Part shown: positions 9,215 to 62,086 of the stretch, in pieces
How positions within the stretch are numbered: position 1 is the stretch's first letter
Layout: the number at the start of each line of letters is the position of its first letter
Source of the DNA: Bacteroidota bacterium
GTDB taxonomy: Bacteria > Bacteroidota > Ignavibacteria > Kryptoniales > JAKASW01
NCBI GenBank assembly: GCA_023480735.1
Contig: JAMCXB010000047.1
Coordinates: 30,486-94,485 of the forward strand
DNA: 64,000 nucleotides
Reading direction: 5' to 3'
The notes under the pieces: generated by a model
Told to the model about the DNA's origin: nothing
What the model saw: the letters and a program-made list of their open reading frames with translations, nothing else
Databases searched by the model: none
Made by a program: the position numbers and the translations under genes

Positions 9215-10420
9215 ATGTCTGAGTTTGACAGCATCGATGTTGCGATTGAAGACATTAGACAGGGCCAGATTGTAATAGTCGTAGATGACGAGGAACGGGA
9301 GAACGAGGGAGACTTTGTTCTCGCTGCAGAAAAAGTGACTCCTCAGGCGGTCAACTTTCTCACAAAACACGCGCGTGGAATAATTTGCGTTTCTCTGTTG
9401 CCCGAACGTGCTGAGCAATTGCAGCTCGATATGATGGTCGGTGACAATACCTCACTTCACCAGACCGCTTTCACGGTAAGCGTGGATGCGGTAAGGGGTA
9501 CCACGACCGGCGTATCCGCTTCCGACCGCGCTACGACGATTCTATCGCTCGTGAACCCGGAGACGGTCCCGTCTGACCTTGCAAGGCCTGGACACATCTT
9601 TCCCCTTCGTGCCGTGAAGGAAGGTGTACTGAGGCGGGCGGGACACACCGAAGCAGCCATAGACCTCGCCAGATTGGCTTCGCTGTATCCGGCAGGAGTC
9701 CTGTGTGAGATTATGAACGATGATGGTACAATGGCACGTGTGCCGCAGCTGATTAAGATTGCCCGTGAGTTCGGGCTGCACATCGTCACGATCAGAGACC
9801 TTATTAATTACAGGATGCAACGCGAGCAGATGGTGAAGAAAATCGTCGTCACCAAGCTGCCTACTCAGTACGGCAACTTCGACCTGCATCTCTATCAGAG
9901 CGTAATTGACAAGAAGGAACATCTCGCGCTTGTCAAAGGCACAATATCCGGCGATGACCCCGTCTTGGTACGGGTGCACTCGGAGTGTCTCACCGGCGAC
10001 GTCTTCGGCTCCAAGAGGTGCGACTGTGGTGAGCAGCTGCATTGCGCGATGAAGAAGGTTGAAAAGGAAGGGACAGGAATAGTCCTTTATATGCGCCAGG
10101 AAGGAAGAGGAATCGGTCTCGTAAACAAGATCAAGGCATACAAGCTGCAGGACGATGGGCATGACACGGTCGAGGCAAACGAAAAGCTTGGATTCAAGGC
10201 CGATCTTCGCGATTACGGTATCGGGGCACAGATACTTGTCGATCTTGGCGTCAGGAAAATCCGTCTCATGACGAACAATCCCAAGAAAATAGTGGGCCTC
10301 GAAGGATATGGGCTTGAGATTGTCGAAAGAATCCCGATAGAAGTCGAGCCGAATGAGGAAAATCAGAAGTATCTCGAGACTAAACGGGATAAGCTAGGTC
10401 ATCTCATCCTCGATCTCTGA
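9215..10420 (+). CDS. ribBA: bifunctional 3,4-dihydroxy-2-butanone-4-phosphate synthase / GTP cyclohydrolase II
   Basis: RibB motif [12 protein letters not shown]. RibA zinc site [18 protein letters not shown]. 401 aa. Confidence 0.95.
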
Positions 10421-15081: not shown

Positions 15082-15111
15082 CTACGGCACAATCTTGTTC
15101 AGCGGATACTC
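15082..15111 (-). repeat. orphan copy of the last 10 codons of hisG (att-like direct repeat, left junction)
   Basis: Reads GAG TAT CCG CTG AAC AAG ATT GTG CCG TAG on the minus strand. 27/30 identical to 24722-24751, with a 22-nt perfect core at 15084-15105. Confidence 0.8.
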
Positions 15112-15116
15112 AAGTT

Positions 15117-15139
15117 GTGCAGGAGCTCTGCTCCTGCAC
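15117..15139. other. perfect hairpin beside the left island junction
   Basis: gtgcaggagc-tct-gctcctgcac: 10-bp perfect stem, 3-nt loop, no U-tract. Confidence 0.6.
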
Positions 15140-15272
15140 CCTGGTCGGAACGCCCCCACCTGAAAATCCTTAGCTTCGTTGGGAGTGGCCTTTTTGGCGC
15201 TTGAATTGTCGGATGATTGAGTCAGCGGAACCGCTCATTTGCCCGCGGCTTTCGCTGAGATATGTACGGCCA

Positions 15273-15306
15273 GTATCAAAACCGAACAGCAGATGTATCA
15301 AAACCG
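15273..15306 (+). promoter_or_regulatory. tandem 12-nt direct repeat upstream of a LuxR-type gene (candidate binding site)
   Basis: gtatcaaaaccg occurs at 15273-15284 and 15295-15306, 22 nt start to start, roughly 190 nt upstream of ATG 15493. Confidence 0.3.
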
Positions 15307-15492
15307 CACACGATATTGGCTCTGAATGCTGGTACTCATTAATCTGGCAGGAATTCAGCGATCTCCAGGCATCACGGCCCGGCAGGGTGTTTGTATGCAA
15401 CTAATCAGAAAGTCGGCCGTTCTCCATCTCATATGGCGGACAATCGGATGAACGGTCAGGTTATGCGTAAGAACATTCGGGAGGATAAGACA

Positions 15493-15738
15493 ATGGGACT
15501 GTCTCAGAATCCGGTGTCAATCGGGGCGGGACTAACCGGCAACGAATCCAAAGTTGCTCGGCTCCTTGCAGAAGGGTTGCGGCGCGAAGAGATCGCGCAA
15601 CAATTGAACGTGAGTATTAGCACAGTCAAATTCCATCTTGAGAATGTGTACAGGAAGCTCGGAGTGCACAACCAGGTAGGAGCGGTGGCTGAGTTCTTGG
15701 GAGACCCGCGTGTAAAGGATGATGGAGATTTGGGATAG
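15493..15738 (+). CDS. GerE/LuxR-type HTH regulator, DNA-binding domain only
   Basis: LTGNESKVARLLAEGLRREEIAQQLNVSISTVKFHLENVYRKLGV. GGGAGG SD before ATG 15493. The track ORF starts at 15391. Confidence 0.8.
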   Translation: MGLSQNPVSIGAGLTGNESKVARLLAEGLRREEIAQQLNVSISTVKFHLENVYRKLGVHNQVGAVAEFLGDPRVKDDGDLG

Positions 15739-15750
15739 TGGAGTACGACG

Positions 15751-15820
15751 AAAACTCACCCGTTTGGGTAGTTGCGCGATCAGGCTGTAGATAGTAAGTT
15801 ATGCCGGTCAAGCCTCGCGG
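15751..15820 (+). repeat. leader block, paralogous to 17866-17935
   Basis: About 48/70 ungapped identities by hand. The core tttgggtRgttgcgcga matches 16/17, and taagttatg is shared. Confidence 0.55.
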
Positions 15821-17009
15821 CAGAGGCCGCGATAATTGGCATCCCCACGCAATGATGGGGATGCCGGGCGAGGACGGAAAAGTGAGCTATTCTGATGAGA
15901 GGCCGGAGTATATTGATGCGGGAGAGCAATCGTGGGGCAATGAAATTCCCGGTAGTAGAATTAGGCTGGAGCGAAAACTGAGGAGATGCATTAAATACAA
16001 GGAATTCTTGTTTGTACTGCTTATTGGAGTGATCTTATTCATCGGTTGCAATAATAATCCAATAAGCTCCGCCAGTTCTCTTTGGACCCAATGTCAGGGG
16101 CTGCCAACCGGTTTGCCTATCACAGGTTTTGCTGCAAGCGGAAGTAATCTGGTTGCGGGGAGTTACAACGCCGTCTTCTCACAAGCTTACATCTTCATTT
16201 CCTTTGACGAAGGTTCAACCTGGCGGTTGGATACCACGTTTCATGCAAAGAATCACTATCCAGGCATTCCCCTTTGGGTCGGCACTCAAGTTACGTTCCT
16301 TTCCGACGGCGCGTACCTCTTTGCCGGGATAGCGGGCGACAGTGGAAACACATACGTCTCCACAGACGGCGGTGCAAGCTGGGTCGAAAGGGATACTAGC
16401 TTTGTTGAAAGTATACTTTCTTTTGCTGCTGAAGGAGGAACCATTTTTGCGGGAACCGGTCGAGGGGTATTCCGATCTACTGACTATGGCATAAGCTGGA
16501 GCGCTGCCAACGCTGGCTTGTATGACTCGCATACAGAGATAGGCCTTGCCGTTAGTGGGATCACGTCTGTTGGCAAAGACATTTTTGCGTGTACCGAGGG
16601 AAATGGAATCTATCGTTCGACGAACGGCGGGGCAAGTTGGGTAAAGGTTAATACCACGCAATTCGATTTTCACAGCCTCGCGCCGATTGGTGCAGAAATC
16701 TTTGCCGGATTTCCCGGAGGTTACTCCAACGGCGGCGTCCTGGGGTCCACGGATAACGGAGCAAATTGGAGGCCTGTCGACGCTGGATTGACGAACCCTT
16801 CAGTCAATGTCCTATGTGCGAACGGTTCTAATCTTTTTGCCGGTACAAACGCAGGGGTATTCCTTTCTTCCAACCTGGGGGAATCCTGGGTAGGTATTTC
16901 AGCGGGGACGAAGATCGATTCATTGGCGGCCATTGCGCTCTTTGCTGGCGGCTCATTCCTTTTTGTAGGAACAGATGAGAGTGGAGCTTGGAGACGTCCG
17001 CTACGCTAA
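15801..17009 (+). CDS. BNR/Asp-box repeat protein, probable lipoprotein
   Basis: Repeated SxDxGxxW boxes (STDGGASW, STDYGISW, STNGGASW, STDNGANW, SSNLGESW). A lipobox-like VILFIGC lies about 80 codons into the ORF, so the true start is uncertain. Confidence 0.75.
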   Translation: MPVKPRGRGRDNWHPHAMMGMPGEDGKVSYSDERPEYIDAGEQSWGNEIPGSRIRLERKLRRCIKYKEFLFVLLIGVILFIGCNNNPISSASSLWTQCQGLPTGLPITGFAASGSNLVAGSYNAVFSQAYIFISFDEGSTWRLDTTFHAKNHYPGIPLWVGTQVTFLSDGAYLFAGIAGDSGNTYVSTDGGASWVERDTSFVESILSFAAEGGTIFAGTGRGVFRSTDYGISWSAANAGLYDSHTEIGLAVSGITSVGKDIFACTEGNGIYRSTNGGASWVKVNTTQFDFHSLAPIGAEIFAGFPGGYSNGGVLGSTDNGANWRPVDAGLTNPSVNVLCANGSNLFAGTNAGVFLSSNLGESWVGISAGTKIDSLAAIALFAGGSFLFVGTDESGAWRRPLR

Positions 17010-17243
17010 AATAAACTCACTGAAAGTCAAAATGAGGATATCTGAAATGAAAAAATAAGGAGGAAGGGATGAGAAAATTCATTTAGCCACAGGCGGCGTA
17101 GCAGCGCCGCCTATAGCAGAAGCGGCAAAATAATCGGCTCAGTATTGGTAATCCACCAGCGGTGGGGTACGCGTGCCTTTTTATTTGCCAGTGATAATTA
17201 CGCAACTATTTTCAGAATTTCAACACTTTGAAGGGAAATAACA

Positions 17244-17835
17244 ATGGGAAAGATAGGAGTAAAAGTAATGCCTCACTGAAAGGGTTATTTCTCTCGCAAA
17301 GGCGCCAAGAACGCAAAGAAATGTTGACGAGCGGTTCGCTTTGCGAGCGGCTTGGCGAGAAACCATAAGTGTGGGGTTACGAGTAAAATACTGGCTTTCG
17401 CTAGCAGCTTTTTTGCTGCTACAGCTTAGCAGCGCTATGATTGCGCAAGGACAACAAGTACTACATGGCACAGTTCCAGCGAGCATCACCAGATTCGGCT
17501 TAAAGCCGGTCTCACGCCTGGATAGTACGAAGCAATTGAATCTCGCAATGTGCCTGCCTGTACGAAACCAGAGTGCATTGAAGAATCTTCTAGGAGAGAT
17601 ATATGATCCGGCCAGCACGGATTATCATCATTATCTAACAGTGGAACAGTTTACCTCACAATTTGGCGCGACGGAATCAGATTACCAGTCGGTGGTTGCC
17701 TTCGCGAAGGCAAATGGATTCACTGTGACTGATACGTCTCCCAATCGCATGATTCTGGATGTGAGCGGAACTGTAGCGAGTATTGAAAAAGCTCTGCACG
17801 TGACGAGTTCTTACGAGACTCCCATCTCACGGATA
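17244..17835 (+). pseudogene. S53 (sedolisin/kumamolisin) peptidase remnant: pro-domain only, 5' end split by a MITE
   Basis: Matches the pro-kumamolisin activation-domain pattern (LGEIYDPASTDYHHYLTVEQFTSQFG...GTVASIEKALHV). The catalytic domain is absent. The 3' breakpoint is approximate. Confidence 0.7.
17265..17380 (+). mobile_element. 116-bp MITE-like element, copy A
   Basis: Differs from copy C at 1 of 116 positions. Imperfect TIR (gtaatgcctcac / gtgtggggttac). 8-bp TSD GAGTAAAA at 17257-17264 and 17381-17388. Confidence 0.8.
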
Positions 17836-17865
17836 ATGCGGATTTGGACTAATTGTGTACGGATA

Positions 17866-17935
17866 AAAAACCGCCCATTTGGGTGGTTGCGCGACCGGAG
17901 GGGACTTCGTAAGTTATGTTTGTCGTGGTTCGCGC
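17866..17935 (+). repeat. leader block, paralogous to 15751-15820
   Basis: See 15751-15820. It lies at the point where S53 homology is lost, upstream of the 18169 gene. Confidence 0.55.
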
Positions 17936-18082
17936 TTAATGGTTCCTCAAGATTGAAATTAGCGGAAATTCAAGAGGAGCGCTTAGTGGCAATGAGAAAT
18001 ACCAAGGTAATCAGTTAAGCAACGGTTCACTGTCACGGCGAGTTCGCAGCATACAACTCAGGGTCGCGTGCCATGCAGTGTT

Positions 18083-18101
18083 GTCGCGTTATTAACGCGA
18101 C
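18083..18101. promoter_or_regulatory. 19-bp perfect inverted repeat (candidate operator)
   Basis: gtcgcgtta-t-taacgcgac, with 9-bp arms, 68 nt upstream of ATG 18169. Confidence 0.35.
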
Positions 18102-18168
18102 GTGATCTTTGTCTGGCTGTAACCGTGTTATGAATGACCACTATCAGCCTAGATACGAAGGAAGGTGT

Positions 18169-19560
18169 ATGAATTGTGGGCCAGTGTTGACAATTAGATT
18201 CCTTTTCTTGGTGTTCGCTTTAATCTTTTCTTATGTGCCAAAGGTTATTCCGCAGGATTTCCAGGTAAGCACCAGTGGAGCTGCAACCCTTTCAGTACAA
18301 GTTGCAAGCGATTCGTCCGGCCGTTTTGTCGTAGTCTGGGATGACGGCCGAAACATCAGGATACCTTATGGCGGGACAGGTAGTGAAGGTGATATCTATG
18401 GTCAAAGATATGACAACAAAGGGGCTCCGGTCGGCAACAATTTTAGAATATCTGATGACAGTTCTGAATGTGACAAATCATTTGCAGCACAATTCTTACC
18501 CCGAATCTCCATGAACAAGAAAGGGGAGTTTGTCGTCGTTTGGATGGACAGTAGGCCAAAGGCTACGCCGGATAATTCAACTGCCCCCCTTGAATTCAAC
18601 GTGTATGCACAACGGTTCGATTCAAGAGGTGAGCCTCTGGGGAGCAATTTCCTGGTGGACAGTCCAGCGATTGGGGGCCAATTGAATCCAGATGTCGTCA
18701 TGAGGAATGACGGCAGTTTTGTTGTTATATGGGTTAATAGTCTTGAAAGTGAAGGTGGGGTTAACAAGGTCTTCAGAGTGTATCTTCAGTCTTTTGATTC
18801 CAAGGGGAGGAAAGTGGGTTTGATTCAGAAGCTGAACCTCTACGCGCAAGAGCCCAGAATAGCGCTTTTCGATGATGGCGATTTTGTCATCGTGGCAGAC
18901 ACACTTGCTCAGGTATTCTCTTTTCCTTCAGATGAGGTGGGAGTTCCTTTCAGGATTTCGAAGGGTTTCACAAGGGTGGTCAAAACCAGCGATGAAAATT
19001 GCACAGATATATATGGGCAGAGATTTAACCTAGATCTGTCCAGGATACGGGGAGACCTAAAGATAAGTCATGAATCAGATAAGTCTGAACAACTTGTTCC
19101 TGCCTGCGCCATGGAAAACAATACCATACAAATTGCTTGGCTTGACGCAAGGGGTATGAGGTACTTCACGAACGTGTACCCTCCACAATTGGAGATCGAT
19201 GTATGGGCTACAATTCAAGATTTTAATAATCCAACTGAGGGGCTTCCGACTCACTGTTCGCAGCCGCCATCGCATATTCCATCCTCTTTCAAGTTCTTTC
19301 AAAGTTATCCTAACCCTACCAATGGTATGGCCGCTTTTGCGTACGATTTACCTGAGGATGGGACCGTGAGACTCACTTTATACAATATCCTAGGGGAGGA
19401 GGTGACGTTACTGGGGGATGAATTTCAAAAAGCAGGGCACTACACCAGAGATTTCATGATTGACAATCTATCCAGCGGCATATATCTCGCAAGATTGTCG
19501 GTTAAGACCATTTCAGGAAGTACTCACACAAGCACAATCAAACTCGTCTTACTTAAGTAA
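18169..19560 (+). CDS. secreted repeat protein with T9SS C-terminal sorting domain
   Basis: Signal peptide MNCGPVLTIRFLFLVFALIFS. Internal repeats of the form GxFVVVWxD...DIYGQRFD..GxPxGxxF. C-terminal YPNPTNG...VRLTLYNILGEEV...GIYLARL matches the Por secretion tail. Confidence 0.8.
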   Translation: MNCGPVLTIRFLFLVFALIFSYVPKVIPQDFQVSTSGAATLSVQVASDSSGRFVVVWDDGRNIRIPYGGTGSEGDIYGQRYDNKGAPVGNNFRISDDSSECDKSFAAQFLPRISMNKKGEFVVVWMDSRPKATPDNSTAPLEFNVYAQRFDSRGEPLGSNFLVDSPAIGGQLNPDVVMRNDGSFVVIWVNSLESEGGVNKVFRVYLQSFDSKGRKVGLIQKLNLYAQEPRIALFDDGDFVIVADTLAQVFSFPSDEVGVPFRISKGFTRVVKTSDENCTDIYGQRFNLDLSRIRGDLKISHESDKSEQLVPACAMENNTIQIAWLDARGMRYFTNVYPPQLEIDVWATIQDFNNPTEGLPTHCSQPPSHIPSSFKFFQSYPNPTNGMAAFAYDLPEDGTVRLTLYNILGEEVTLLGDEFQKAGHYTRDFMIDNLSSGIYLARLSVKTISGSTHTSTIKLVLLK

Positions 19561-19607
19561 GCGTGTGCATTTTGTCGCTCATTCACTGTGAAAAATACGG
19601 AGGAAAA

Positions 19608-19754
19608 ATGAAGACTCTAAAGAGAACCCCTTTTGCTATGTTCCTGATACTTTCAGCAGTCTTTCTTTCCAAAGGAATTTCTTACGGACAATTATCAGGC
19701 GGGAACGGAGCAAAATATACTACTAGGTTTTCGTCAAGCTTATTCGACTTATAA
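19608..19754 (+). CDS. small secreted peptide (48 aa), hypothetical
   Basis: GGAGGA SD 5 nt before the ATG. MKTLKR, a hydrophobic core and then ...QLSGGNGAKYTTRFSSSLFDL. Ends 27 nt before the next start. Confidence 0.45.
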   Translation: MKTLKRTPFAMFLILSAVFLSKGISYGQLSGGNGAKYTTRFSSSLFDL

Positions 19755-19781
19755 TTGGACACTGACGCACCGGAGGTTGAA

Positions 19782-19994
19782 ATGAATGTTGCAGCAGAGC
19801 AACTCAGCAAGCGGGAACAGGAGGTTTTGCGGCTGATTCTGGAGGGATTTGAAAACAAGGCGATTGCAAAGAAGCTTTTCATTAGTGTAAAAACGGTTGA
19901 ATTCCATAAAGAGAATCTTAAACAGAAATTGCAACTGAAAACCAATAGAGAATTGTATGAGTTGAACAATGGTCATATAATATTTGAGGACTGA
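19782..19994 (+). CDS. GerE/LuxR-type HTH regulator, DNA-binding domain only
   Basis: [50 protein letters not shown] before ATG 19782. Confidence 0.8.
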
Positions 19995-20075
19995 ACAGGT
20001 GAGCATTCCATCCAAAGCGATGTCCTCAACGCTTAGCTTTGAACGCGCTATCGAAGGTAAAATAAGGACTTGCCA

Positions 20076-21149
20076 ATGAGAACGCCGAAGATCCTGATTC
20101 TTTTCCTCCTTTCCGGTGCGCCGTTATGCGGCCAGGAACTACCAACCGAAGGCTTATTCGAGTTCAACTCGATCTTTCAGCAGAAGAACATCAGAGTGTC
20201 GGACAGAATCAAAGAGGACTTGAATCTGCAGGGTTCATTTATTCAACAGACCTACTACAATGCAAACAAAGACACGCGGATAGATTCCATTCAACCAATA
20301 AGGCGGGTCTCTACAATTCAATACTTCTCAAATGGTGATCAAAACGTGTTGCAGTTGCTGGACGATGGATCTCACTTTGACGATGGCTCAAGCGACGCAA
20401 TCTACGGAAATGTTTCAATTGGTGAATTCGACCGGTTTCGTACTGATGAATCCACCATCGATGTTCAGTTAGACACGATGGGAATTAATTATTTTATGAT
20501 TTACCCTCGGGTTACTTACTTGCCGGAGCCGCCCACTATAATAATCCCTCAAAATAGTTCCACGGTATCATCGACAATGCCTCAAGTTGCCTGGAGAATA
20601 GACCCGAGAGCAGATGGAGCGGGCGTAATCCTTCTTGCAGGTGCTCCGGTCCTGGGAGAGAAACTGAAAGGCGTAATTTGGCAGGAATCGTTCGCGCAGA
20701 ATGGGAATAGCCTCTTTACGGAAAAGTTGCCGTTCAAGTTGGAAAACAAGAAAGAGTATACGTTGATAATTTGGTCATACACAAACACTAAAGTGGTTGA
20801 TGGCGTCTTGGATCGAGCTGCATATTCGATGGAGTGGAGCAGGTTTCGCGTAGATACCTCACTGCAGAATGGCGATTTGGTTCTCTTGCAAAATTTCCCC
20901 AACCCCTTTAGTTCTGTGACGTTCATTAGTTATGTTTTGCCTAAGGATGGAGACGTTTCGATAAAGATATTTGATGTTTTGGGGAATCAAGTAGCTACAC
21001 TGGTACACGAAAAAGAATCGCAGGGCGAGCACTATGCTGTATGGTGCGGACAGAATGCTCTTGGATGTAACGTCGGCTCGGGTGTGTACCTCTACAATCT
21101 TATTTTCGACCATCACTCAAGAACCGGGAAATTACTACTGCTCAGATAG
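20076..21149 (+). CDS. secreted hypothetical protein with T9SS C-terminal sorting domain
   Basis: Signal peptide MRTPKILILFLLSGAPLCGQ. C-terminal NFPNPFSSVTFISYVLPKDGDVSIKIFDVLGNQVATL...GVYLYNL. Confidence 0.8.
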   Translation: MRTPKILILFLLSGAPLCGQELPTEGLFEFNSIFQQKNIRVSDRIKEDLNLQGSFIQQTYYNANKDTRIDSIQPIRRVSTIQYFSNGDQNVLQLLDDGSHFDDGSSDAIYGNVSIGEFDRFRTDESTIDVQLDTMGINYFMIYPRVTYLPEPPTIIIPQNSSTVSSTMPQVAWRIDPRADGAGVILLAGAPVLGEKLKGVIWQESFAQNGNSLFTEKLPFKLENKKEYTLIIWSYTNTKVVDGVLDRAAYSMEWSRFRVDTSLQNGDLVLLQNFPNPFSSVTFISYVLPKDGDVSIKIFDVLGNQVATLVHEKESQGEHYAVWCGQNALGCNVGSGVYLYNLIFDHHSRTGKLLLLR

Positions 21150-21302
21150 ATAAACAGGAGTTTTCCCCCGTTGTTCTCCTGTCTGCCCAAGGATACCTTT
21201 CATATGCGAAGTGGAGAACCGTGACGGATCGAATCCGGAGCGGGTGCGGCCTGTTTCCGTGGGTTCTCAGGATTGGTAAACCAAAAAAGAACGGAGGTTA
21301 AT

Positions 21303-21797
21303 ATGGGACGAGCTAATTCAATGATTCGCTTTATAGTTGTCCTTGCCGGGATGCTTGCGGTTTCCGCATTGTCGTCATACGCGCAAGAAAGAACCTTGGA
21401 TGATTTAGTAAGAGACTCTCAGGTGATTGTTATTGGTAATGTTAAGAATGTTCAAAGCAAATGGGACAATCAAAAGAGAAACATCTGGACTTACGTCACA
21501 ATTAGCAGCCAAAGCTATCTGAAAGGCGACATTACACAGGGCGAATTGGTGGTTAGAATCCTTGGCGGCGCGGCGAACGATACAAGCCAGTACGTCTCTG
21601 GCAGTCCAAGGTTCGACGTCGGTGAGCATGTCTTGACTTTTCTGGGGAAGGATGTTCAAGATTTCTACTACGTAAACGGTTGGGAAGATGGCAAGTACAC
21701 GTACAGGGATGGTGCTTGGATTGGAAAAAATTCTGAATTCCCCGGGCAACTCGTCACACAAATAAAGTCTATAGTAAAACTTCAATCAAAACAATGA
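21303..21797 (+). CDS. secreted hypothetical protein
   Basis: GGAGG SD. Signal peptide MIRFIVVLAGMLAVSALSSYAQ. No family recognised. Lies immediately upstream of the metalloprotease gene. Confidence 0.6.
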   Translation: MGRANSMIRFIVVLAGMLAVSALSSYAQERTLDDLVRDSQVIVIGNVKNVQSKWDNQKRNIWTYVTISSQSYLKGDITQGELVVRILGGAANDTSQYVSGSPRFDVGEHVLTFLGKDVQDFYYVNGWEDGKYTYRDGAWIGKNSEFPGQLVTQIKSIVKLQSKQ

Positions 21798-21825
21798 ACC
21801 CTCTTAAACAATGAAGGAGTTTTCC

Positions 21826-23976
21826 ATGGCTACGATGAAGAAGTTCGTGCTTTGTGTTATGTTCATCTGGCTCTTGTTTCCCGCTACATCTCTTTACGCC
21901 TACAAGTATGTCGGATATAGATACACAAAGGGCAATTTTCCCGCTTTCTATGTCAATCAGGCGGGTACCCCCGATTGCTCTGGCGAATTCACTGCTATTC
22001 AAAATGCTCTACAGACTTGGAATAATGTAAACACAACCTATGTTGCTTTTCAGTATGGGGGTACAACCACGACAAATACGATGGGACTGGACGGTACAAA
22101 TCTTATGATGTGGGTAGAGAGCGGCTGGCGAACTATATTTCCAGGCAGTAATGCGGTAGCGGTAAATTCCACGTGGTATTCCGGTGGTGTTGCCTACGAA
22201 TCAGATATTCTCTTTAATGGTGAAGACTACACCTGGTCCGATAACGGAGCGGCTGGCAAATATGATGTCAAGGATGTTGCCACCCATGAAATAGGTCACT
22301 CAGTTGGTCTTGACGATCTCTACGACGATACGGACGCCGATAAGACTATGTACGTTTATATTGGGACTGGCGAGACGAAGAAATCAACCCTAGATCCGGA
22401 CGATGAAGACGGTGCTAGGTACGTAAATTTCGAGGCCCAGACCTCAGGTACACTTTCGGAGGACCAGGTCTGGTTGGTATCGCTAGACGGCACCTCCATC
22501 ACGGTCCCCGGGAATTTGACCATACCTTCGGGTCGAACCTTAGACATAGAATCGGGGCTTGCTGTCACTTTCAGCGGCTACTATAAGCTCCGTGTCGAGG
22601 GGGTACTTATAGCCAGTGGTTCTCCGAGTAGTCCGGTCACTTTTCAGGGCAACGGCTCCTCCGGCTCGTGGTTCGGCATCGAATTCTACAATATCTCAAG
22701 TGGTTCGAGCCTCCGCTATTGCACAATAAAGGATGCCAGCTACGGATTGAACCTGATCTCGAGCTCTCTTCCCGCTAATCCCCTCATCATCAGGAACAAT
22801 AACCGCGGAGTCAACTGTACCAACTACAGCGATCCGAGTTTTATGTCGACCGTATTCGACTATAACAACTGGGACGTCTACGGTGATGGTACCTCGACAC
22901 CGCTGCTTGGAACATCGATAGGCCCGGGGTATAACAGTTTCCGCGACCCCGGATACTACCAGATATATTCAACCTATTCCGGTACCATCAGCGCCGAGGG
23001 GAACTGGTGGGGAAGCTCTCCCGCCTATCCCATTGTTACTTCGAATGTGGATTATTCCAACTGGCTTTCCGTTGATCCGAATCCATCCATGAAACAAACA
23101 GGCGGTAAATCCGCCGTTGTCGTCCAGTCCGTATCGCCTTCTTCACCGGGGTTGCAGAACTCTCGGCCAGGCGTCACAAGCTCCGACTCTGGCACAACGC
23201 AACTGGATGCAGCGTATCGTTTGTATCTCGACGGAGATTATGAAAATGCACTCCGGGCTTTTGAAACCGTGACGACAAACTATCCGGATGACTTTGCAGC
23301 CTGCCGCGCCCTGGTTTTTGCCGGGCGGTGCCTCGATAAACTTGTCCGGTCTTCGGATGTTCTCACCGAACTGAACGATGTCTCTGCTGCACAAGCAGGC
23401 ACCAGGGTAAACACATTCGCCGAGGCAAGGCGCACGTATCAATATCTGAAGGAGGGGAAGTACCAGGAAGCGCTTGCGCAAGCCGTGCAGATTGCCGGTT
23501 CGAGCAGCGACACGGCTCTTATGAAGTTCGCGCTTTATGATGCCGGGAGCATCGATTGGTATGACCTTGGTAACAAGGGAGATGGCGAGAAATACTATCG
23601 CCAGTTGATCTCCCGTTTCCCTGGCGATCCGCTCAGCGCTTCTGCACTTGTAGCCATGGGGGAAACCACCTCGCCTTCTGCTCCTCAGCAGCAAGCCAGC
23701 GCTGTAACAGAAGAGAACCAAACAGTACTTGGGAATTATCCCAATCCGTTCAATCCGGCGACTGTGATCTCATACGGTCTTAATAAAGGAGGTCATGTGA
23801 CACTGAGAATCTACGATGTACTTGGAAAGGTTGTCGCAACACTTGTCGATGGTAATGAGAATGCGGGCCAACACAGCGTGCAGTTCAATGGCCAGAACCT
23901 TGCCAGCGGGATTTATCTCTATCGCTTAACTGCACTTGGAGTCGATCAGGTGAAGAAGATGATCCTCATGAAGTGA
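21826..23976 (+). CDS. metzincin-like zinc protease fused to a beta-helix region, a TPR-like region and a T9SS C-terminal domain
   Basis: HEIGHSVGLDD (HExxHxxGxxD) with a downstream KTMY Met-turn candidate. NWWGS motif at the end of parallel-beta-helix-like repeats. C-terminal NYPNPFNPATVISY...RIYDVLGKVVATL...GIYLYRL. Confidence 0.8.
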   Translation: MATMKKFVLCVMFIWLLFPATSLYAYKYVGYRYTKGNFPAFYVNQAGTPDCSGEFTAIQNALQTWNNVNTTYVAFQYGGTTTTNTMGLDGTNLMMWVESGWRTIFPGSNAVAVNSTWYSGGVAYESDILFNGEDYTWSDNGAAGKYDVKDVATHEIGHSVGLDDLYDDTDADKTMYVYIGTGETKKSTLDPDDEDGARYVNFEAQTSGTLSEDQVWLVSLDGTSITVPGNLTIPSGRTLDIESGLAVTFSGYYKLRVEGVLIASGSPSSPVTFQGNGSSGSWFGIEFYNISSGSSLRYCTIKDASYGLNLISSSLPANPLIIRNNNRGVNCTNYSDPSFMSTVFDYNNWDVYGDGTSTPLLGTSIGPGYNSFRDPGYYQIYSTYSGTISAEGNWWGSSPAYPIVTSNVDYSNWLSVDPNPSMKQTGGKSAVVVQSVSPSSPGLQNSRPGVTSSDSGTTQLDAAYRLYLDGDYENALRAFETVTTNYPDDFAACRALVFAGRCLDKLVRSSDVLTELNDVSAAQAGTRVNTFAEARRTYQYLKEGKYQEALAQAVQIAGSSSDTALMKFALYDAGSIDWYDLGNKGDGEKYYRQLISRFPGDPLSASALVAMGETTSPSAPQQQASAVTEENQTVLGNYPNPFNPATVISYGLNKGGHVTLRIYDVLGKVVATLVDGNENAGQHSVQFNGQNLASGIYLYRLTALGVDQVKKMILMK

Positions 23977-24012
23977 TTCCATAACGTAACTTTCATCGAG
24001 AAGGAACTATTT

Positions 24013-24041
24013 GAGGCCCGATTTCTCATAAATCGGGCCTC
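24013..24041 (+). terminator. stem-loop after the metalloprotease gene
   Basis: 12-bp perfect stem gaggcccgattt / aaatcgggcctc with loop ctcat. The U-tract is weak. The stem sequence is shared with 62123-62153. Confidence 0.55.
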
Positions 24042-24138
24042 TCGTTAGCCTATTTCCCCTCGTGTTTTTCCGCACACACAGGATCACCCCCAAGACGTGA
24101 TGAAGACGAAGACAGCGTTCCATTCGGCGCTTCAAAAA

Positions 24139-24588
24139 TCATGTGGATGACTCGATAAGGTCAGATATCTTTTTCAAGGTCCCTGCAGAATGTTTCCCGG
24201 TTCCCGCCTCCAGCCGACGAAGTGTCGCTTCGTCCATTCCTAGTTGGATCGCCAGTTGCTTTCGCGTCATCCCGTGGAGAAGCCTGGACCGAGTGATTTT
24301 CTGGTTCAAGGTGCTTGAGGGGAAAAGATTCCCGGGAATGTATCCCAGGAACTCGATTATCTTCTGGATCTGCCTTATGAGCGGCTCATGATCTCCGGCT
24401 TCCCATCCTACAACGGACATGACATCCACCTGCAGCTGGGCAGCGACCTCCCGCCGGAAGAGTCCGAGATCAAGCCGCCTTTTCCGTATGTGGTCACCAA
24501 AAGTCATAAGTGTCCTCGGATAAGCTTTAGGAAGCGGCTTTTTAGCCTTAATTTCGAGGTGGCAGAATGGCAACGCGGGGATGTCCAT
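24139..24588 (-). CDS. XRE-family transcriptional regulator with two HTH repeats
   Basis: FGDHIRKRRLDLGLFRREVAAQLQVDVMSVVGWE plus a second repeat LLHGMTRKQLAIQLGMDEATLRRLE. The start is ambiguous (24615, 24588 or 24507). Confidence 0.75.
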   Translation of the reverse strand: MDIPALPFCHLEIKAKKPLPKAYPRTLMTFGDHIRKRRLDLGLFRREVAAQLQVDVMSVVGWEAGDHEPLIRQIQKIIEFLGYIPGNLFPSSTLNQKITRSRLLHGMTRKQLAIQLGMDEATLRRLEAGTGKHSAGTLKKISDLIESST

Positions 24589-24721
24589 TCGCTGTGATAG
24601 ACAAATCAAGAGCACTATCTAAGACATGCCGCCCCTACGCTTAGACACTTACCTTGTCTCATGATAGTTCGGGCAACTCTCCGTTCTATTCTCCCAGGAT
24701 TCCGCAATTCCAGGATTCCCC

Positions 24722-24751
24722 TCACGGCACAATCTTGTTCAGCGGGTACTC
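24722..24751 (-). repeat. hisG 3' terminal 30 nt (att-like direct repeat, right junction)
   Basis: GAG TAC CCG CTG AAC AAG ATT GTG CCG TGA. This is the partner of 15082-15111. Confidence 0.8.
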
Positions 24752-41173: not shown

Positions 41174-41289
41174 GTAACCCCTCACTTATGGTTTCTTGCC
41201 AAGCCGCTCGCAAAGCGAACCGCTCGTCAACATTTCTTTGCGTTCTTGGCGCCTTTGCGAGAGAAATAACCCTTTCAGTGAGGCATTAC
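41174..41289 (-). mobile_element. 116-bp MITE-like element, copy B
   Basis: 114/116 identical to copy A in reverse complement. 9-bp TSD CTTCGTCAC at 41165-41173 and 41290-41298. TIR 10/12. Confidence 0.8.
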
Positions 41290-60787: not shown

Positions 60788-62086
60788 GTGTATCTTAAAA
60801 AAGCTTTTGCTAAAGGTAAGGTAGTGAGTCAGGGAGCTCAATACATACACATGTTGCGAAGTTCGATAAGACTATTACGCAACTGCTACCGGGCATACAG
60901 CTCGGGTATTCCGGAGTACAATCAAAGCTACTGCGATTTCGGCAACAACGCTGGGGATCAATATGGGCTGAATAGCGTTCACGACAATTATCCTTACAAC
61001 GCTGCTGTAGGGCTCTCTTATCCCTCCGACCCAGCTGCCCTGACTGCGTATAAGAACTGGTGGGGAAGCAATCCCCCTGATGCGTCACTCTTCTACTGTT
61101 CTTCTGCCTGTCAGCTGAATAACGGCAACTCCCTTTCTTCCGACCCATGATCCGGGATACCGCTGCCGTCAGTTGAAACCAAAGGTAACCTTGCCGCACA
61201 TGTTATAGCTTCGGTGAAATCACAGCCCGATGCCGTCGCGGAATCTATGGCTCAGTCCGCCAAAGTCTCCGGCCCCATTTCCACGGACTCGCTATCTGCA
61301 GGGACCCAGCTCCGATCACAGGGGAAATTCAAAGAGGCTAAGGACTTCTTCAAATCATACTTAGGCAGACATCCCGACAATCAGGCGGCTTATGTTTATC
61401 TATATAGTTGTGCAGACACGGGAACGACCCCGGATATAGTTGAATACTTCAAGTCGTTGCCAAAACAGGCTGCCAGGGCACACAAACTTCTTCTGGCTAA
61501 TCTGTATCTGAGGGAAGGGAATACGCAGGCTGCGAAGAACGTGAACAATGATATCATTGCGGCAAACCCAAAGACTTCGCTTGCCGAGAGGGCGAAGCTC
61601 AATAACTTTTACATTGCGTTGTACAATGACAATGATCCGCAAACGGCATCTTCGATTCTAAACGACATTGAACAAAGTTCGTCTCTATCTACGACGATGG
61701 AAATATCGGATGCCGAGCATTCACTCGCTGTCTATGTCGGCCCTAAAACCGGAACGATGCCACGTGCAAGCTTTAAGCGGTCAGCCAACAGCTCTCAGGA
61801 TCTAACAACTAGCGATCTTCAAGAGCAAAGCGGCTTGCTGGAAAATTATCCGAATCCCTTTAACCCATCGACAACAATACGCTACCAGCTTCCGAAGCCG
61901 GGAATGGTGAGTGTCAAGGTTTATGACGTTCTCGGACAGGAGGTGGCGACTCTGGTCAACAGCTATCAGGAGTCGGGCACTCACACAGTCAACTTCAATG
62001 GCGATCATCTCGCGAGCGGCATCTACTTCTACCGGCTGACCGCACCGGGAATTACAATCGTCAAGAAGATGTTGATGACGAAGTGA
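60788..62086 (+). pseudogene. 5'-truncated, TGA-interrupted paralog of the island beta-helix/TPR/T9SS protein
   Basis: The two track ORFs (60788-61150 and 61214-62086) share one frame and are separated only by TGA 61148-61150. The domain order NWWGS..., TPR-like, NYPNPFNP tail mirrors the C-terminal half of the 21826-23976 protein. No protease domain is present. Confidence 0.65.

Follow-up and report, generated by a model that had tools for sequence, protein, structure and literature searches.

The window, as we call the whole stretch of 64,000 nucleotides analysed here, carries between dus and hisG a strain-specific island of 9.6 kb. In this island lies the 5' part of a gene for an S53 peptidase, which is interrupted directly behind its start and ends before a catalytic domain is reached. 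The features found in the gene and directly downstream of it are listed below; L numbers denote contigs with related loci.

17244..17264, plus strand: start codon and codons 1-7 (MGKIGVK) of the S53 gene, severed from the remainder; assigned from the sequence, and aligned with the ATG/GTG start and the n-region of six orthologs
17257..17264, no strand: left copy of the target duplication (TSD), GAGTAAAA; AGTAAAA is single in the intact ortholog L061
17265..17380, plus strand: MITE copy A, 116 nt, termini GTAATGCCTCAC and GTGTGGGGTTAC, long hairpin; defined from three copies in the window, absent from L061 and L001
17381..17388, no strand: right TSD copy, GAGTAAAA, read from the sequence
17389..17806, plus strand: S53 remnant, codons 8-146, with the h- and c-regions of the signal peptide and then the Pro-kumamolisin activation domain; from Pfam and 93.9% nucleotide and 92% amino acid identity to L061 3034-3458
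17805..17852, plus strand: 3' remnant of a LuxR/GerE-type gene, EFLRDSHLTDNADLD and stop, its last 15 codons, out of the S53 frame; from DNA alignment to LuxR 3' ends
17866..17930, no strand: conserved post-LuxR motif, hairpin AACCGCCCATTTGGGTGGTT and about 40 nt; further copies at 15751-15810, the only other one in the window, and at L061 94-160

The inserted element and the original 5' end

Close orthologs of the truncated gene were reached by way of homologs of the upstream BNR-repeat protein and the contigs that carry them. Direct searches with the fragment returned one related contig, L001 (64% amino acid identity), and a metagenome scan with the degenerate pattern GQQVLHGTVP found nothing beyond this already known contig. 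The scan of the genome collection contained no close ortholog of the S53 remnant, only distant S53 genes from peat Verrucomicrobiota and Acidobacteriota with at most 60% amino acid identity. Homologs that were all short had first suggested a stand-alone pro-domain family, a candidate that was rejected because these homologs are contig-end fragments or frameshifted full-length genes.

In L061 (Logan SRR31012007) the syntenic BNR gene (92.5% nucleotide identity) is followed by an uninterrupted S53 ORF of at least 1027 codons, which starts MKKTAVKYWLSVTAFLLLQLGSAMIAQGQQVLHGTVP with its ATG at the same codon. Blastn pairs L061 1810-3040 with window positions 16034-17264 and L061 3034-3458 with 17382-17806 (92.5-93.9% identity), and the two alignments overlap by the 7 nt AGTAAAA. 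L061 has this heptamer once and the window twice, as results from an empty site and a target duplication. The alignment with L001, whose gene starts with a GTG preceded by AGGAGG and located seven codons before TAC, is interrupted at the insertion site by a gap of exactly 124 nt. The empty site is thus visible at the DNA level in both relatives.

Positions 17244-17264 read ATG GGA AAG ATA GGA GTA AAA, with a Shine-Dalgarno-like GAAGGGA upstream of the ATG. In-silico excision of 17265-17388, that is the element and one copy of GAGTAAAA (124 nt, 3x41+1), yields the in-frame sequence MGKIGVKYWLSLAAFLLLQLSSAMIAQGQQ...; the join in the empty allele would read ...GGAGTAAAA-TACTGG... and the reconstruction translates as MGKIGVKYWLSLAAFLLLQLSSAMIAQGQQVLHGTVP.... 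The restored N-terminus, MGKIGVKYWLSLAAFLLLQLSS..., leads into the Pro-kumamolisin activation domain. The initial annotation had located the ATG and codons 1-7 at these positions, had joined them in frame by removal of 124 nt and had noted that a gain not divisible by three cuts off the start, all of which the sequence and its translation confirm. The start itself is also correct: six orthologous genes (L061, L069, L001, L062, L067 and L070) have their Met start at the position aligned with the reconstructed ATG, and their N-termini align with the reconstructed protein without a gap at the junction. The statement that the only starts left lie inside the element needs to be narrowed. It applies upstream of the junction, where TTG 17341 and GTG 17371, both within the element, are the only in-frame starts; downstream of the junction, a TTG in the h-region (found by reading) and an ATG at about 17437 (scored) are in frame as well, and products from these two would be without a signal peptide.

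A signal peptide is predicted for the reconstructed protein, supported by inspection and by the N-terminus conserved in six orthologs. The n-region contains two lysines (computed charge +2), the h-region has an 11-residue hydrophobic core with a mean Kyte-Doolittle value of 2.26 and the c-region contains SSA/MIA, as read from the translation. PF09286 is matched by residues 47-147, which cover model positions 5-105 of 143 (E=6.9e-23; 81.9 bits, the cutoff being 23.5), so that the suggested pro-kumamolisin-type domain passes the Pfam threshold. The intact L061 protein aligns with pro-kumamolisin (PDB 1t1e) through both the pro- and the catalytic domain (E=2.9e-44), and its translation shows, by inspection, the motifs EVCLDIEM and GTSCAAPLWAG. 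The S53 catalytic domain is present in the orthologs L061 and L069, and the T9SS sorting domain (Por_Secre_tail, PF18962) is found at the C-terminus of L062 (E=1.3e-9) and L069, which argues for a sorting domain in the ancestral S53 gene as well. In the window copy the sorting domain is missing with the deleted part. Compared with its intact orthologs, the ancestral S53 protein was probably a cargo of type IX secretion.

The element that separates codon 7 from codon 8 has two further copies in the window.

41174..41289, minus strand: MITE copy B, 9-bp TSD GTGACGAAG; from copy comparison, junction reproduced in Logan contig L060
62186..62301, plus strand: MITE copy C, TSD GTCCGCT(G/A) (8 bp, one mismatch); from copy comparison

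Copy A reads GTAATGCC...GGGGTTAC from end to end (17265-17380). The three copies in the 64-kb window are 98-100% identical, with none expected by chance, and copies B and C differ by one or two substitutions. A three-way alignment shows identity beginning and stopping at the same bases in all of them, and each is flanked by its own duplication of 8-9 bp. The terminal inverted repeats agree at 9/12 positions (GTAATGCCTCAC against the reverse complement GTAACCCCACAC), and the element folds into a long imperfect hairpin in which pairing spans most of its length (z=-3.5 against shuffles). These features, namely shared boundaries, individual TSDs, near-identical copies and a hairpin, define a MITE. 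The empty site in relatives together with the TSD confirms the transposition that the initial annotation had deduced from the reconstruction, and is orthogonal proof that a previously undescribed 116-nt element transposes in an uncultured Bacteroidota lineage.

The left junction of copy A is matched base for base in an independent Logan assembly (L066, run SRR10244963), so the insertion is not an artefact of the MAG assembly; this contig stops 28 nt into the copy. Logan contigs L060 and L066 end 27-28 nt inside copies B and A, respectively, which is typical of contig breaks caused by repeats. Copy B is located between an NlpC/P60 gene and etfB, 58 nt upstream of the former, and copy C lies about 100 nt past the stop of a TPR/T9SS gene (61214-62086), upstream of nuoB. 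Empty sites for copies B and C were not recovered: one of the flanking proteins was found only in the same strain, on a contig whose site is filled, and the other is not on record. Rfam and tRNA scans of the window gave no matches.

The 3' junction

Identity with L061 (94%) and L001 reaches position 17806 (...CACGTGACGA) and then vanishes. This junction, 17806/17807, is seen in this contig only. According to tblastn the S53 catalytic domain with its Ser-Glu-Asp triad is absent from the whole 64-kb window, and the S53 copy is therefore a gene fragment and not a functional member of the family. The truncation at the 3' end and the lack of a following catalytic domain, both already noted in the initial annotation, thus stand. 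Two details of that description have to be corrected: homology had been said to end at 17815-17840, which is 10-30 nt downstream of the true end, and the segment 17866-17935 had been called a repeat block. With up to 3 mismatches allowed, no second copy of 17866-17909 was found in the window, and self-BLAST with 17800-18180 revealed no long repeat; the segment is the conserved post-LuxR motif and not a transposon.

Directly behind the breakpoint, 48 nt at 17805-17852 match the last part of the LuxR/GerE gene at 15391-15738 (...AEFLGDPRVKDDGDLG and stop) and also a LuxR 3' end that opens the L061 contig. The two sides of the junction share a microhomology of 2 nt, GA. Since the end of a LuxR gene follows the breakpoint immediately, the junction points to a deletion that fused S53 codon 146 to the end of a downstream regulator, and the length of the L061 gene implies a loss of at least about 3 kb. 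We infer the ancestral gene order, S53, LuxR and then a 483-aa T9SS gene, from the remnant, because the L061 contig ends inside its S53 gene. The motif of about 60 nt that comes next is found directly 3' of LuxR/GerE genes and upstream of genes for secreted proteins; it has no Rfam match. Its hairpin AACCGCCCATTTGGGTGGTT shows one apparently compensatory change in L061, from C-G to T-A, and is followed by a T-run on the minus strand.

Metagenome assembly might have produced one or both lesions as artefacts, for instance by a chimeric join or a collapsed repeat. The window does come from a MAG, and the flanks of the island are 99% and 81% identical to relatives, respectively. However, the MITE is bordered by a clean 8-bp TSD, the assembly of SRR10244963 reproduces the left junction and then breaks within the repeat, with copy B behaving likewise, and the 2 nt shared at the deletion junction are far below any assembler k-mer. 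Assembly artefacts are thus an extremely unlikely source of the lesions.

Just as improbable is a reading in which the S53 gene was split and not deleted. About 4.7 kb (17807-22500) would have been inserted, and the 3' part would survive as the C-terminal 490 amino acids of the ORF at 21811-23976. Residues 608-1026 of the L061 S53 protein are indeed 77% identical to residues 231-649 of this ORF, which encodes an M10 protein, and at the nucleotide level identity is 79.7% (window 22567-23757). But synonymous sites of this module are more diverged from L061 (dS 0.80) than those of the S53 N-terminus (0.19) or the BNR gene (0.26), which indicates a much earlier divergence and thus a paralog; the tail of the M10 ORF was rejected as the lost S53 3' end on these grounds. 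In addition, the homology shared by the M10 and S53 proteins sets in precisely where the catalytic domain ends, the ORF 21811-23976 is intact and has its own predicted signal peptide and an M10 matrixin domain, and the DNA directly 3' of the breakpoint is the end of a LuxR gene and not a foreign insert.

The M10 T9SS protein (21811-23976) shares over residues 231-721 its entire C-terminal beta-helix-like/TPR/sorting-tail module with the S53 orthologs, with counterparts at L061 4841-6097 and L062 10972-12444. The M10 protein and the S53 orthologs are paralogs that combine a common tail with swapped protease heads.

In a third alternative, expression of the remnant continues, now as a new gene. 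GTG 17371 or TTG 17341, supplied by the MITE, would then start a secreted stand-alone pro-domain, MGLRVKYWLSLAAF..., with a rebuilt signal peptide, and the product could be, for instance, a protease inhibitor or a chaperone. The ORF 17341-18018 is open across 225 amino acids; the N-terminus that starts at GTG 17371 has an n-region charge of +2 and a hydrophobic core identical to the original one, and the TSD recreates the V-K codons. Several observations speak against such a gene. The pro-domain ends at model position 105 of 143, and the final 70 residues would be derived from the out-of-frame LuxR remnant and intergenic DNA. No Shine-Dalgarno-like sequence precedes the internal starts 17341 and 17371, whereas one is present at the original ATG and in the orthologs. 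Furthermore, none of the three products, from TTG 17341, GTG 17371 and ATG 17437, occurs in a collection of 15 billion proteins in which the neighbouring genes of the contig are present. We regard expression as a new gene as very unlikely.

By far the best explanation, in which we place high confidence, is an S53 pseudogene hit twice, by the MITE insertion and by an independent 3' deletion. On this reading, 17244-17806 is what is left of a dead gene that encoded a secreted serine peptidase of the S53 (sedolisin/kumamolisin) type. The 116-nt non-autonomous MITE inserted between codons 7 and 8 and duplicated the 8 bp GAGTAAAA; the net gain of 124 nt shifted the frame and split the ATG and the n-region from the rest of the signal peptide. 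An illegitimate deletion at the GA microhomology, with an estimated size of at least about 3 kb, took away the final quarter of the pro-domain, all of the catalytic domain and the C-terminal beta-helix/TPR/T9SS-tail module. The same deletion removed most of the downstream LuxR-type regulator, with S53 codon 146 becoming joined to the last 15 codons of the regulator.

The remnant has a pN/pS of about 0.24. Compared with L061, its dS is 0.185 and its omega 0.22; compared with L001, pN is 0.20 and pS 0.76, which is saturated. The neighbouring BNR gene has similar divergence values. The S53 gene was thus under purifying selection until recently, for nearly the whole of its history, and together with the 98-100% identity of the MITE copies this points to a recent inactivation, from which we infer that neither lesion is old. 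The locus represents ordinary gene decay, a known process, and the correct annotation is a pseudogene and not a hypothetical protein of 225 amino acids.

The island and the S53 genes of related lineages

The island (15112-24723) is absent from at least 10 related contigs, in which hisG adjoins dus directly (81-99% identity). Comparison with these relatives defines its boundaries, a 28-nt direct repeat that corresponds to the last nine hisG codons.

15084..15111, no strand: left boundary, 28 nt that repeat the hisG 3' end; this is the original end and keeps the TAG stop of the relatives
24724..24751, no strand: right boundary, 28-nt repeat with 1 mismatch, the present hisG 3' end

Besides the S53 remnant and the BNR gene (protein MCL5268040.1; the neighbouring DusB is MCL5268038.1), the island contains two LuxR genes, what remains of a third one, an XRE-type regulator and three proteins with T9SS tails, the M10 paralog among them. 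Pfam gave no hit for a 174-aa island ORF. The gene decay inside an island that the initial annotation had proposed is thus found in DNA that relatives lack. The left flank is 89-99% and the right flank 81-85% identical to relatives; since the right flank is far more divergent than the left, the island may also have arisen when a divergent donor supplied the DNA for a homologous replacement. The first 78 or so codons (15801-16033) of the 402-aa BNR ORF have no counterpart in L061, where homology begins at 16034, and BNR orthologs have 333-341 amino acids. Probably the BNR start has been annotated too far upstream; alternatively, a further mosaic junction lies here.

The syntenic S53 gene can be read in seven lineages. 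It is intact only in L061 and L069 and disrupted in 5/7 (4/6 if the lineage of the window is excluded), by the following lesions.

Lineage of the window: MITE insertion and 3' deletion
L001: TAG at codon 141 (1399-1401) and a -1 frameshift near codon 176 (about 1505)
L062-L065 (four contigs): 89 nt inserted at about codon 57 (L062 9227-9315), including two CCCCGCCGCAAGCGGCGGGG hairpins
L067 (3592-3594) and L068 (3030-3032), from two samples: change of TAT to TAA within the conserved DFRAAY motif
L070: a frameshift close to codon 271 (about 8240)

All lesions differ and thus arose independently. This recurrent disruption is an observation made in seven lineages, with an uncontrolled background rate of pseudogenes, and not a demonstrated trend; the pattern fits relaxed selection as well as a selected loss of the secreted enzyme. 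The lesions are mostly recent and the coding sequence is otherwise under purifying selection, and a loss that is recurrent and selected, and not accidental, is a tentative reading that we consider unlikely. If it were true, an extracellular "public-good" protease would have been lost adaptively and repeatedly in natural populations (Black Queen or cheater dynamics), or, alternatively, members of this uncultured Bacteroidota clade would have escaped from something that targets a surface-exposed enzyme. Should a proper survey confirm disruption in 5/7, the locus would exemplify how an extracellular enzyme is lost repeatedly in nature, and this recurrence across lineages is the only part of the analysis that might repay further work.

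The lesion in L062 contains a small element of 77 nt (9227-9303) that is unrelated to the MITE, carries two copies of the palindrome CCCCGCCGCAAGCGGCGGGG and is flanked by an imperfect 13-nt duplication. No copy of it was found in the window or in the other loci.

Comparison with known systems

In its form the 116-nt element resembles the MITEs known to inactivate bacterial genes (Correia elements, ERIC/RUP-type and IS-derived elements): it is small, non-coding and hairpin-forming and has terminal inverted repeats. Like known MITEs it has TSDs, several near-identical copies and an empty site in relatives. It differs from them in its sequence, for which nothing related was found in plasmid or viral collections (one short plasmid match was at chance level), in Rfam or in about 0.6 Mb of related loci.

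A target duplication of 8 bp is typical of the IS66 family. Both termini of the element start with GTAA (GTAATGCC and GTAACCCC), and IS66 inverted repeats have been published as GTAAGCG... and GTAACCG... (PMC12888890). The agreement is limited to 4-5 terminal bases, and one MITE copy has a duplication of 9 bp. IS66 transposase genes (tnpA/B/C) were not found within the window, nor was an autonomous partner element, and the terminal 20-mer had no further match there. Because no partner was found, IS66-family elements as a possible source of the MITE ends are a lead and not a claim of membership.

The island is similar to those integrated at the 3' ends of housekeeping genes with att-like repeats in that it is absent from relatives, is bordered by a 28-nt direct repeat and has left the old hisG 3' end at its far side. 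Unlike such islands, it shows no integrase or recombinase by Pfam among the island ORFs scanned, and its target is hisG and not a tRNA gene.

As in other S53 peptidases (sedolisins; pro-kumamolisin 1t1e), PF09286 is present in the remnant, where it follows a predicted N-terminal signal peptide, but the window copy is without pro-domain model positions 106-143 and the entire catalytic domain. The orthologs also differ from kumamolisin: they are 800 to over 1027 amino acids long and carry an additional beta-helix-like/TPR module and a C-terminal T9SS sorting domain.
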